The notes under the pieces: generated by a model | What the model was told of the DNA's origin: nothing | The model's input: only the letters and a program-made list of their open reading frames with translations | The model's database searches: none | In this document: positions 20,249-57,002 of the stretch, one piece after another | Position numbering within the stretch: the first letter of the stretch is position 1 | How the letters are laid out: the number at the start of each line of letters is the position of its first letter | Made by a program: the position numbers and the translations under genes | Assembly (NCBI RefSeq): GCF_009931435.1 | Contig: NZ_CP043414.1 | Direction: 5' to 3' (one strand) | Length of the DNA: 64,000 bases | DNA from: Escherichia coli | GTDB taxonomy: Bacteria > Pseudomonadota > Gammaproteobacteria > Enterobacterales > Enterobacteriaceae

Positions 20249-21844
<1,596 letters not shown>

Positions 21845-49899: not shown

Positions 49900-50084
49900 T
49901 GCCAGCATCCTTTTTGTATCGGACGTAAACGGGCCAACATTGAAAGAATGCATATTTTATTTAATAGCTCCCGTTCGTGTTTTCTCTTGTTAATGGCATC
50001 TTCAGTAAATACAGGGTTACTGATAGTGACACCAATTTCAAAACAACCTTCAGACGTATTAACGTTTGGTAATAACGTTTCCAT
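49896..50084 (-). CDS. dicB: cell-division inhibitor DicB
   Basis: 62-aa ORF METLLPNVNTSEGCFEIGVTISNPVFTEDAINKRK..., recognised DicB. Confidence 0.85.
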   Translation of the reverse strand: METLLPNVNTSEGCFEIGVTISNPVFTEDAINKRKHERELLNKICILSMLARLRPIQKGCWQ

Positions 50085-50255
50085 TATCGCGTCCTCAACA
50101 ATGAATTTTGTGATGCGGTGCCTGGTGCTTCCAGGTGACGTTAACCAGTTAACAATTAACGCCGGATACAGAGAATCCACCCATAACACTGTTTTTGGTT
50201 TTAACTGTTCCGCGTGCGCTCAGCCGCATTCACCGCATCACAAAATTCACTTTAA

Positions 50256-50311
50256 AAAGGGCGGCAGAGCAGTCACGGAGTAAAACTGATACCGCCAAAC
50301 GTCACCAGAAA
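50256..50311 (-). ncRNA. dicF: DicF small regulatory RNA
   Basis: Minus strand reads TTTCTGGTGACGTTTGGCGGTATCAGTTTTACTCCGTGACTGCTCTGCCGCCC plus T-run, matching DicF as recalled; about 170 nt upstream of dicB. Confidence 0.75.
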
Positions 50312-50652: not shown

Positions 50653-50871
50653 TTAACGCGGGTATGTAATCATTCTGGCAATGGTTAATGCCGCTGCTTT
50701 TTCCAGATTGGTGATATCCTGCTCCAGAGAGGACAGATTTTCAGCCTGCTTAGCCCTGACTTCATTAGCCCATTTCAGATCCTGCGCTGCATTAATTTTC
50801 TGGTGCATCCACTCATAAAGTTCATCATTGGTATAGTCTGGCGCGATGATGACGGGTTCTCGTTTCTGCAT
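50653..50871 (-). CDS. ydfC: YdfC-like prophage protein
   Basis: 72-aa ORF in the dicB operon position. Confidence 0.6.
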   Translation of the reverse strand: MQKREPVIIAPDYTNDELYEWMHQKINAAQDLKWANEVRAKQAENLSSLEQDITNLEKAAALTIARMITYPR

Positions 50872-50900: not shown

Positions 50901-51029
50901 TCAGCCATTAGATTTTGCCGAACTGGAAAGCGCCTGTTTAAATTCGTTGAAGCTGTGAGCTTCTTCGCCTTCGGCAAGGCCTTCGAAGTATTCTTCGTAA
51001 GCCTTTTCCATGATTGTGTCGAAATCCAT
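50901..51029 (-). CDS. ydfB: YdfB-like small acidic protein
   Basis: 42-codon ORF (MDFDTIMEKAYEEYFEGLAEG...) found by manual translation; below ORF-track cutoff. Confidence 0.5.
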   Translation of the reverse strand: MDFDTIMEKAYEEYFEGLAEGEEAHSFNEFKQALSSSAKSNG

Positions 51030-51030
51030 A

Positions 51031-51186
51031 TCACCCACCTGAATTTCTTTCCAGCCAGCGACGCGCTCCAGATTCGGTTTTAAACGTTTTGCTTTTGGTA
51101 TACGTCATTGCGGTGAACGTACCGTCCTGGTTGGGGAACACGCCACATACCAGAGATTCGCTGTTGCCAAGATTGATAGTATCCAT
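51031..51186 (-). CDS. ydfA: YdfA-like prophage protein
   Basis: 51-aa ORF from MDTINLGNSESLVCGVF; first gene downstream of the repressor. Confidence 0.6.
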   Translation of the reverse strand: MDTINLGNSESLVCGVFPNQDGTFTAMTYTKSKTFKTESGARRWLERNSGG

Positions 51187-51451
51187 GCTGACCTCATTTC
51201 CCCTTAACGCCGGGGTAGCGGAACAAAAACCTGCTGCATAGTTATTAAAGTTGTACCCTGCCGTCATGTTCTTACGCCTCGGGCTGGCTACTTAACCCCT
51301 GACCACTGCCTGGTAACTCGAAGTATTGCCCTGCATTCTGTGGAGCGGGGTGAGTTGGTATGAAAAGAAGGATACCCATAGGTATTTAAAAAGTAAATAC
51401 CCATGGGTGACTTTTTGCAGTGTCTTAACTGGTGACTAGTTGTTTGGTGAG

Positions 51452-51871
51452 CTATGATGCGTTTTGTGCTTTCTTTTTACGGATTTCTTCGTAGATCATA
51501 TTGTAATACTGTTTTTTCTCTTCAAGAGTTTTTAATAAGTTATCCGCTTCACTTTCTGGCAGTTCGTCTAAGAGATCTAAAAAAATACGTTGTCGTGGCG
51601 TTAGAACCCTTGTTTCATAACTGGAGGCTGTGTTCGTTGATGATGAAACGATACCATCCATCCATCCCCGGGGTAACCCAAAGGACTCTTCGATAATCTC
51701 CACCATATCATCAGCGATCCGTTTTTTTCCCTTTTTCCCCTCTGGGTACAACATTCTTGATACATAAGAAGGCTCGCGCCCGATCTTTCTGGCCACGTTA
51801 ACCGCTTTACCATCGCATTTCTCATCACGAATTTTGATGAGTTGCTGTCGTCTAAATTCATATTTGTCCAT
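51452..51871 (-). CDS. prophage repressor, DicA-like C-terminal domain with distinct N-terminal HTH
   Basis: 139-aa ORF; HTH-like VARKIGREPSYVSRM; C-terminal LDLLDELPESEADNLL resembles DicA; no SD before ATG. Confidence 0.7.
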   Translation of the reverse strand: MDKYEFRRQQLIKIRDEKCDGKAVNVARKIGREPSYVSRMLYPEGKKGKKRIADDMVEIIEESFGLPRGWMDGIVSSSTNTASSYETRVLTPRQRIFLDLLDELPESEADNLLKTLEEKKQYYNMIYEEIRKKKAQNAS

Positions 51872-51971
51872 AGGTAAATAATAGATGCGATTACTGCAAG
51901 GTAAACAACCTGTGGGTATTGACTTTTGTTTACCTGTAGGTATTCTTTGCTGTGTTTACTAAGGAGTAGCT
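51872..51971. promoter_or_regulatory. divergent promoter/operator region of the immunity switch
   Basis: AGGTAAATAA (51873), AGGTAAACAA (51899) and inverted TTGTTTACCT (51927) repeats around TTGACT; AAGGAG RBS for cro-like gene. Confidence 0.5.
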
Positions 51972-52253
51972 ATGGAAGAATTAAGAATATTTCTCAATTC
52001 TCTTTCGTCAGATGAACAGCGTATGTTTGCATGCGAGTGTGGTACCAGCATCGGTTATCTAAGAAAGGCATTGAGTAAAGGTCAAGTGTTAGGGGCATCG
52101 TTATGTGTCCTTATTGAGCGAGCCAGTAATGGTGAAGTTACACGTCAGCAACTAAGGCCTTTTGATTGGATGAATATTTGGCCCGAGCTGGAAGATACCA
52201 AAACGTTAACACAACCACTTTCTAGGAGCTTGATTCATGAAAATCAAGCATGA
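51972..52253 (+). CDS. Cro/YdaS-like HTH regulator
   Basis: 93-aa ORF divergent from repressor with AAGGAG RBS. Confidence 0.65.
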   Translation: MEELRIFLNSLSSDEQRMFACECGTSIGYLRKALSKGQVLGASLCVLIERASNGEVTRQQLRPFDWMNIWPELEDTKTLTQPLSRSLIHENQA

Positions 52254-52662
52254 ACACATCCGCATGGCGATGAATGCCTGGGCGCATCCGGACGGTGAAA
52301 AAGTTCCGGCAGCTGAAATAACCAGGGCTTATTTTGAACTGGGTATGACGTTCCCAGAACTGCATGACGACAGCCATCCGGAAGCCCTGGCTCGCAATAC
52401 CCAGAAAATTTTCCGCTGGGTAGAGAAAGACACCCCTGATGCAGTTGAAAAAATTCAGGCGTTGTTACCAGCGATCGAAAAGGCAATGCCACCTTTGCTG
52501 GTGGCCAGAATGCGCAGCCACAGTTCAGCTTATTTTCGGGAGCTGGTGGAGACGCGGGAGCGACTGGTGAGAGACGCTGATGATTTTGTCGCAGTGGCAA
52601 TCGCCGGTTTCAATCAGATGAACCGTGGTGGCCCGGCAGGAAATGCTGTGGCAGTGCATTGA
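52237..52662 (+). CDS. YdaT-like (CII-like) regulator
   Basis: 141-aa ORF starting MKIKHEHI as in Rac YdaT (recalled); 17-nt overlap with preceding gene. Confidence 0.55.
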   Translation: MKIKHEHIRMAMNAWAHPDGEKVPAAEITRAYFELGMTFPELHDDSHPEALARNTQKIFRWVEKDTPDAVEKIQALLPAIEKAMPPLLVARMRSHSSAYFRELVETRERLVRDADDFVAVAIAGFNQMNRGGPAGNAVAVH

Positions 52663-56723: not shown

Positions 56724-57002
56724 ATGGCGCACGATACCAAATTACACAATTCTGATGATTCTGCCGTCTTTGCCAGCAGGTGCGGACGGCGTTTTCATGC
56801 ATTCAAATCGGACTGGTTCCAGCATCCACCATGCACTGAAGAGCAGGCTGAATGGATAATTCAGTGTTACCGCAGGCGCGGATACGAGGTTAAAAAAGCC
56901 CTTAGCCTCGACTACCGTCACTGGATAATCTCAGTCAGATTGCCTTACTCCGAACGCCCACCGCGTCCGTCCCACACATTCCAGCAACGCATCTGGAGGT
57001 AA
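56724..57002 (+). CDS. rem: Rem-like prophage protein (start uncertain; ORF opens at 56613)
   Basis: ORF upstream of ydfU in the K-12 Qin rem position; start chosen at first ATG. Confidence 0.45.
   Translation: MAHDTKLHNSDDSAVFASRCGRRFHAFKSDWFQHPPCTEEQAEWIIQCYRRRGYEVKKALSLDYRHWIISVRLPYSERPPRPSHTFQQRIWR

Follow-up and report, generated by a model that had tools for sequence, protein, structure and literature searches.

The stretch of Escherichia coli DNA considered here (the window, 64,000 nucleotides of contig NZ_CP043414.1, RefSeq assembly GCF_009931435.1) carries, around positions 51,187 to 51,971, two divergent open reading frames (ORFs) separated by 100 bp and encoding a short repressor and a Cro-like protein, and its sequence makes it highly likely that a lambdoid prophage akin to Rac and Qin has its immunity module here, working in the manner of the OR and OL regions of phage lambda. 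The sites at which the repressor is predicted to bind are in all likelihood five dyads of 12-14 bp with the form TTACC-N4-GGTAA, and not the GGTAAAYAA repeats that an earlier sequence-only reading of the same region had proposed as operator half-sites. The evidence lies in the sequence anatomy of the region, in conservation across a whole family of homologous loci and in the domain homologies of the encoded proteins. The CI/Cro-type immunity region suggested in that earlier reading is borne out by the divergent gene pair and by the dyads shared over both promoters, and the logic of the switch is fully conventional, of the type represented by lambda, CP-933P and Qin but with a specificity of its own and with no new kind of mechanism.

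A repeat search identified the TACC-N4-GGTA dyad as the element common to the two regulatory regions situated on either side of the repressor gene. When up to one mismatch is allowed, five copies (beginning at 51373, 51398, 51892, 51907 and 51931) fall within 570 bp; the whole window holds 24 matches against 12.55 expected, which at the shuffle density amounts to about 0.11 dyads per 570 bp and a Poisson probability of about 1e-7 for five or more. Three of these predicted operators lie between the divergent genes. O_R1 (O1; 51931-51942, TACCTGTAGGTA) overlaps the -10 hexamer of PR, the putative promoter of the cro-like gene, O_R2 (O2; 51907-51918, AACCTGTGGGTA) abuts its -35 hexamer, and O_R3 (O3; 51892-51903, TACTGCAAGGTA) carries one mismatch, a T at 51895; O1 and O2 are 24 bp apart, O2 and O3 15 bp. 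PR itself (51919-51946, + strand) consists of TTGACT (51919-24), a 16-nt spacer and TATTCT (51941-46), scores 9/12 in a promoter scan and would start transcription near 51953, upstream of the Shine-Dalgarno (SD) sequence AAGGAG at 51961-66. On the opposite strand the same scan finds the putative repressor promoter PRM (51878-51905, - strand), with TTTACC (51905..51900), a 16-nt spacer and TATTAT (51883..51878), such that the GGTAAA arm of O3 is at the same time the PRM -35 (TTTACC on the - strand), while the centre of O2 lies 41.5 bp upstream of the repressor ATG, the presumed PRM start.

The other two predicted operators, 25 bp apart, lie downstream of the repressor gene over a putative promoter PL (51369-51397, - strand; TTTACT at 51397..51392, a 17-nt spacer, TATCCT at 51374..51369), which would start near 51362 and transcribe the ydfA-ydfB-ydfC-dicF-dicB operon: O_L1 (OL1; 51373-51384, TACCCATAGGTA) overlaps the PL -10, and O_L2 (OL2; 51398-51409, TACCCATGGGTG) abuts the PL -35. 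PL was read from the sequence as a paralogue of PR, the - strand of the OL region reading ACCCATGGGTATTTACTTTTTAAATACCTATGGGTATCCT and the PR region ACCTGTGGGTATTGACTTTTGTTTACCTGTAGGTATTCT; likewise, the segments comprising OL2 with the PL -35 and O_R2 with the PR -35 form a repeat pair of 20 nt that is 85% complementary. The palindrome ATACC-CATA-GGTAT and the GTAAATA motif pointed out earlier downstream of the repressor are both present (ATACCCATAGGTAT at 51372-85, and 51393-99, respectively), and the proposal that palindromes there are regulatory sites agrees with their assignment to OL and PL, although that proposal had left them unlinked to the intergenic sites.

The conservation of this arrangement was assessed in homologous loci collected with the N-terminal domain of the repressor (N-domain, taken as residues 1-72), 34 of them by scanning a single genome for each species; together with phage loci, including mEp043 and CharmingMan, and viral-contig loci these yield the 29 distinct upstream sequences to which the counts out of 29 refer. 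The sources include Edwardsiella, Pantoea, Brenneria, Yersinia, Aeromonas, Arsenophonus, Ferrovum, Paraburkholderia, Neisseria and Xanthomonas. Two scans of viral contigs with an N-domain alignment brought up little other than identical E. coli-type loci and served as an allele survey, comprising 31 alleles in 87 loci; the diversity of the set came from the species-level scan. Relative to the repressor ATG, dyad centres are found in nearly all 29 sequences at -26.5 to -29.5, at -41.5 to -44.5 and at -65.5 to -69.5. The TACC and GTA arms of O1 are invariant (29/29) and the first G of its GGTA is kept in 27/29, with the four central base pairs varying freely; O2, at 24-25 bp from O1, is recognisable in 28/29, its TACC arm being invariant and the other arm weaker (GGTT/GGGA); and O3 stands 15 bp from O2 in all loci. 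At O2 and O3, too, the half-site arms are near-invariant and the central N4 is variable across the 29 distinct loci. Similarly, the polymorphism among E. coli-type loci is concentrated in the central N4 of O1 and O2, and the majority allele among the 87 carries a perfect O3 dyad, of which the window has a minority variant. In 18 other loci an OL-type pair spaced by 25-26 bp recurs past the repressor gene, at a distance of 40-1900 bp, with TTGAC next to the pair and an overlap with a GGTAT..T -10, so that the GGTA-TTGAC...GGTAT arrangement seen at PR recurs there at PL. The Cro-like partner is homologous in 20 of the 22 other loci checked, and conservation of the N-domain together with the operators extends from Enterobacterales to Neisseria, Burkholderiales and Xanthomonas. 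One of the loci, L098, on a contig labelled as a metagenome-assembled genome (MAG: Collinsella sp.), has an E. coli-type immunity region with a repressor N-domain 100% identical to that of the window, and is probably a mis-binned enterobacterial prophage contig.

How far other elements could account for these regions has to be considered next to this conservation. According to the sequence-only reading, the repressor recognises units of 9-10 bp, (A)GGTAAAYAA, of which two direct copies and one inverted copy surround the TTGACT hexamer. All three copies are present (51872-81 and 51899-908 on the + strand, 51926-35 on the - strand), and they are statistically non-random, AGGTAAAYAA occurring four times in the whole window against 0.29 expected, a count reached in 0/100 shuffles; moreover, two of them form an inverted repeat, perfect over 10 bp and with 17 bp between its arms, and the flank after O1 is moderately conserved, with A at position 13 in 25/29 and at position 16 in 17/29 sequences. 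Yet when the conservation of the repeats in related prophages was checked, any copy at all was found in only 15/29 distinct upstream regions, three copies together only in the window type, and the copy abutting the ATG in 1/29, the window's own type. The element is also missing from the OL/PL region, which must answer to the same repressor and where TACC-N4-GGTA occurs twice, and arms lying 27 bp from centre to centre are implausible as a single site for a helix-turn-helix (HTH) dimer. What is conserved of GGTAAAYAA is only the GGTAA/TTACC core, as the arms of TTACC-N4-GGTAA dyads, the copy at 51899 consisting of the O2-O3 spacer with the promoter-proximal arm of O3 and the inverted copy at 51926 of the promoter-distal arm of O1 with its flank. 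Recognition of such units by the repressor is therefore very improbable. The 51899/51926 inverted repeat was also considered as one long operator and rejected, since its conservation is limited to the core and its two arms are parts of separate dyads. The third copy, adjoining the ATG, is probably fortuitous, no other upstream sequence having it, and for the same reason 51872-81 was rejected as a fourth operator (TACCTATGGACA, 6/8 arm bases). It is, furthermore, conceivable that the Cro-like protein, alone or along with the repressor, recognises a longer element or one in another register, of which the dyads are only a part, candidates being the O2-O3 junction GGTT-ATT-TACC and the direct repeat ACCTGTRGGTATT. 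The junction is almost invariant (A 26/28, T 28/28, T 27/28, T 28/28), and in CP-933P direct and inverted repeats were both noted and the exact recognition sequences left open (PMC8630535). However, the junction is also the context of the PRM -35, which alone could account for its conservation, and the dyad arms are the sole elements common to all five sites, leaving little probability for a wider code of this kind.

Two further alternatives concern not the operator sequence but its function. The palindromes at 51373-51409 could represent mainly an intrinsic terminator of the repressor transcript rather than operators, much as the lambda cI-rex transcript ends at a terminator: on the - strand of 51374-51408 a hairpin of 15 bp can form from the OL dyads plus flanking sequence (folding energy -22.7 kcal/mol, z = -3.2), the U-rich AUCCUUCUUUUCAU comes next, and this hairpin lies 43 nt past the repressor stop codon, where read-through into dicB would be harmful. 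But any two neighbouring palindromes resemble a hairpin, the U-tract is interrupted, and the same pair with the same spacing and the same -35/-10 hexamers recurs in further loci as much as 1.9 kb past the repressor gene, with other genes intervening, which makes a primarily terminating role rather unlikely. The two roles are not exclusive, and the OL hairpin could double as a terminator keeping PRM transcripts out of the dicB operon. The idea that the switch is a decayed, non-functional remnant in a cryptic prophage derives from the O3 of the window being mismatched relative to the majority allele, from the weakness of PL and from the presence of frameshifted repressor alleles in the databases. 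Against it stand an intact repressor ORF that shares 99% identity with a cluster of 543 members, and a region for which 821 of 5426 complete E. coli genomes (~15%) have a match with a query coverage of 80% or more, the identities among the matches listed being 97.9-99.8%. In addition, the switch controls dicB/DicF, which in Qin is toxic when derepressed (bioRxiv 10.1101/2023.04.14.536235), and this toxicity implies selection to keep the switch, so that decay appears improbable.

If the -10 hexamer of PRM is correctly assigned, the repressor would be translated from a leaderless messenger. The TATTAT ends six nt before the repressor ATG (A at 51871), a placement that would make the A of the start codon the first base of the mRNA, and, as had been noticed from the sequence, the 20 nt upstream (...CGCATCTATTATTTACCT-ATG) hold no SD. 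The comparison among the homologous loci points in the same direction: hexamers of the form TANNNT are found 6-7 nt before the ATG in 18/29 and at none of the gaps of 0-5 or 8-12 nt, and by a criterion of at least 4/6 consensus matches a -10-like hexamer occupies this position in 21/29, while SD-like 4-mers occur in 8/29 repressor upstream regions vs 19/24 cro upstream regions. With the position of the -10 conserved and the SD mostly absent, the repressor mRNA is very probably leaderless, starting at the A of its own ATG, in line with the proposal made before. An experimental example is known from CP-933P, with a 97-bp region between the repressor gene and the divergent YdaS gene, where the leaderless paaR2 transcript was shown by 5' RACE (rapid amplification of cDNA ends) together with N-terminal sequencing (PMC8630535), and to this the present data add a family-wide comparative case. 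In five loci from Paraburkholderia, a Xanthobacteraceae MAG, Herbaspirillum and Alcaligenaceae (L117, L119, L122, L125 and L130), with intergenic regions of 82-84 bp, the cro-like gene is likewise devoid of an SD, with GGTAAA roughly 10 nt ahead of its start codon; at these loci the two divergent transcripts might both lack a leader. Similarly, in phage Tritos (L002, 3715-3800) a TATCAT ends 7 nt before the CI ATG, again with no SD, and leaderless repressor genes may be common in the group of phages to which Tritos belongs.

The repressor ORF (139 aa; 51452-51871, - strand), listed in RefSeq as 'hypothetical protein' WP_000362155.1 and matching PHROG 5736, encodes, to judge from its homologies, a hybrid of an N-domain outside Pfam coverage and a DicA-like helical C-terminus devoid of a cleavage domain. 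Both halves of the earlier proposal of a DicA-like C-terminus joined to a different N-terminal HTH hold good: residues 82-133 of K-12 DicA match the C-terminus (BLASTP E 1e-7; hhalign 96.4%, E 1.2e-9), and the N-terminus has no Pfam HTH match at E<=10, whereas DicA matches HTH_3 at 1.3e-16. With the DicA family of NCBIfam (NF007257) only residues 86-136 match, at 23.9 bits vs a cut-off of 101, which places the protein outside that family. A search for a family of the N-domain in Pfam (E<=10), NCBIfam and PDB sequences found none, weak matches to Z-alpha/ADAR (E 0.08) being taken as chance, and Pfam detects no Peptidase_S24 domain in the repressor. An AlphaFold2 model (15-sequence alignment, pLDDT 82) consists of a five-helix HTH at 3-63, a disordered linker at 76-87 and a helical hairpin at 92-138; in the PDB it comes closest, with weak E-values, to HTH domains of the XRE type and to Rep, the non-cleavable repressor of Salmonella phage SPC32H (PDB 5d50), the latter being the best structural match (weak, E 3.8e-3). 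The segment REPSYVSRMLY, predicted to comprise the recognition helix, is almost invariant in the N-domain family. This family counts hundreds of relatives, of which most are proteins of 220-242 aa with Peptidase_S24 (PF00717) and a minority, in E. coli, Salmonella, Serratia, Yersinia, Arsenophonus and others, are short with a DicA-like C-terminus. Database variants of 135-136 aa, starting MNLDDSNSS..., change frame exactly at the A5 and A7 homopolymer runs in the repressor codons for EGKKGKKR (51716-51740), so that they are either alleles frameshifted by a single indel or the result of sequencing errors. Nothing relevant came from searching the literature for WP_000362155 or for the operators of mEp043, and in the literature searched neither the operators nor the N-domain family seems to have been characterised.

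As to the working of the switch, we infer binding by the repressor, the order of operator occupancy, activation of PRM, transcription starts and the route of induction by analogy with known systems. The repressor, presumably dimerising via its XRE-type HTH N-domain, would bind the five TTACC-N4-GGTAA dyads. Occupation of O1 and O2, the former covering the PR -10 and the latter abutting the -35, would shut off the rightward cro-like/ydaT operon, and repressor at O2 would activate PRM as lambda CI does from the same distance, whereas occupation of O3, at high repressor levels or by the Cro-like protein, would shut PRM off; repressor at OL1 and OL2 over PL would keep the toxic ydfABC-dicF-dicB operon silent. 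Since the repressor has no S24 domain but a DicA-like C-terminus, induction by an antirepressor, or spontaneous switching driven by the Cro-like protein, would be likelier than RecA-stimulated cleavage. There are precedents for such a mode, DicA being relieved by the antirepressor Rem with switching that is independent of RecA (bioRxiv 10.1101/2023.04.14.536235), and the short Gifsy repressors not being cleaved (PMC3121763).

Several observations weigh against this reading of the region as a repressor switch operated through five dyads. The conservation of the half-sites at O1-O3 is partly confounded with that of overlapping promoter elements, TTTACC being the PRM -35, GGTA-TTGAC containing the PR -35 and GGTAT forming the start of the PR -10. 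The hexamers of PL are weak, with 8/12 consensus matches, below the threshold of the promoter scan. In the window O3 carries its mismatch and one arm of O2 is weak, so the order of occupancy is unreadable from the sequence, and four Klebsiella loci (L101, L103, L104 and L106) have no recognisable O2. A YdaT-activated promoter of the PRE type, as in CP-933P, could also provide a leadered repressor transcript. With regard to induction, a search of the window's prophage part yielded no credible homologue of Rem (best E 1.8), the late region lying outside the window; PHROG annotation of the downstream genes in the window gave no antirepressor, the prophage continuing past the window end; and the prophage part holds no LexA box, the single match in the window being at chance level and outside the prophage. 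A 36-aa match to Rem at 21299-21406 (E 0.003) likewise lies outside the prophage part.

Two side observations belong here. In the Klebsiella relatives the repressor is called with an N-terminal extension (MVNDVKIAPMDKYE...), O1 is kept and O3 usually so, giving a variant operator layout. A 92-aa ORF at 56726-57002 (+ strand; PHROG 1212, function unknown), between hok/mok-like and YdfU-like genes, occupies the place that rem has in Qin, and with no detectable similarity to Rem it is a positional antirepressor candidate only.

To the right of the operators lies the cro-like gene (93 aa; 51972-52253, + strand), whose product, a putative lytic repressor, is placed tentatively in the YdaS family: it matches Pfam YdaS_toxin with an E-value of 9.2e-6 and 25.8 bits, below the curated cut-off of 30, the PDB entries 8c7k/8co2, named 'Cro', at E 1e-10, and PHROG 35. 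It is followed by ydaT (52237-52662, + strand; Pfam YdaT_toxin), the product of which, a CII-like regulator, is near-identical to PDB 3c4r (E 1e-90) and 8bt1 (E 5e-80). A predicted YdaT site, the perfect TTGATT-N6-AATCAA inverted repeat TTGATTCATGAAAATCAA at 52230-52247, lies at the end of the cro-like gene, spans the ydaT ATG and is the only match without mismatch in the window; the footprinted OM site of the CP-933P YdaT has the same sequence and position (PMC9986795).

On the left, the predicted PL operon (- strand) begins with ydfA (51031-51186), identified by Pfam DUF1391 and by the RefSeq annotation of an identical locus, and continues with ydfB (50901-51038), ydfC (50653-50871) and the small RNA DicF (50259-50310; Rfam, 76.7 bits, above the gathering score). 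The stretch adjoining DicF, 50052-50261 on the same strand, gives a match to STnc100 below threshold (38.7 vs 47 bits). In an almost identical RefSeq locus the left arm runs on through dicB and genes for an exonuclease, an excisionase and an integrase adjoining ompW. Between the predicted PL start and ydfA, the block 51187-51362, which would be an untranslated leader, is conserved in 4163 of the 5426 complete E. coli genomes and present also in prophages whose immunity is of another type (Rac of K-12, Tritos); since this block of homology ends almost exactly at the predicted PL start, the left mosaic boundary of the immunity module would be situated there. Folding of the PL leader (51187-51365) in search of a riboregulator revealed no excess structure (z = +0.86).

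The lambda paradigm includes OR1-3, OL, PR, PRM and PL, with CI activating PRM from about 42 bp upstream and with a leaderless PRM transcript. The window shares with it three right operators and a left set, a promoter-proximal pair 24 bp apart and a middle operator ~42 bp upstream of the repressor start, but differs in having dyads of 12-14 bp rather than 17 bp, an O2-O3 distance of 15 bp, two recognisable OL sites rather than three, a repressor without S24, and unrelated Cro and CII equivalents. The PaaR2/YdaS/YdaT system of CP-933P in E. coli O157:H7 resembles the window in its divergent repressor and YdaS genes about 100 bp apart, in the overlapping footprints of repressor and Cro-like protein (found there and predicted here) and a second operator set at PL (PMC8630535, PMC9986795), and in YdaT as the CII equivalent with a TTGATT-N6-AATCAA site at the same place. 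However, PaaR2 differs in its N-terminus, which starts MQKKE, and is followed by the paaA2-parE2 toxin-antitoxin pair, absent from the window; its YdaS is only distantly similar to the Cro-like protein of the window (E 1e-10), and its operators are four 18-bp palindromes with the half-site GTTTAGTAA, compared with three TTACC-N4-GGTAA dyads of 12-14 bp here.

Qin of K-12, for which bistability of the CI/Cro kind and an antirepressor, Rem, have been demonstrated (bioRxiv 10.1101/2023.04.14.536235), has the same ydfA-ydfB-ydfC-dicF-dicB left arm, with its promoter adjoining a short, non-cleavable repressor of homologous C-terminus, but the N-domain of DicA is HTH_3, the Cro partner is DicC and not YdaS-like, and the operators, as read from the sequence, are of the TTAG...CTAA type. 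The CI of Tritos combines the same DicA-like C-terminus with an HTH_3 N-domain and has GTAC-containing repeats at OL and OR. The predicted operators of the window are thus unlike those of both Qin and Tritos, in agreement with the altered immunity specificity that had been suggested from the N-terminus. Conversely, the cI products of mEp043 and CharmingMan and the S24/LexA-family CIs of Proteobacteria (220-242 aa) possess the N-domain type of the window repressor, but their C-terminus is the Peptidase_S24 autocleavage domain, from which it follows that they should be RecA-induced. The Gifsy repressors GfoR, GtgR and GfhR (PMC3121763) are of about the same length (~136-139 aa) and, like SPC32H Rep (PDB 5d50), consist of an HTH N-domain and a helical C-domain with no cleavage motif, inactivation there being by antirepressors; this likeness to the window repressor is one of size and fold.

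Taken together, the operator/promoter map proposed here is testable, gives a repressor role to a common E. coli prophage gene so far annotated 'hypothetical protein', and names what would keep the toxic dicB/DicF operon silent in these strains. There is about an even chance that a single immunity specificity, made up of the N-domain, a YdaS-like Cro and TTACC-N4-GGTAA operators, is combined in nature with two interchangeable induction modules, one being the autocleaving S24 C-terminus and the other the DicA-like C-terminus, presumably responsive to an antirepressor. If this is true, the hybrid repressor should confer cross-immunity against mEp043-type phages, and the host-active dicB/DicF operon would be gated independently of RecA cleavage.

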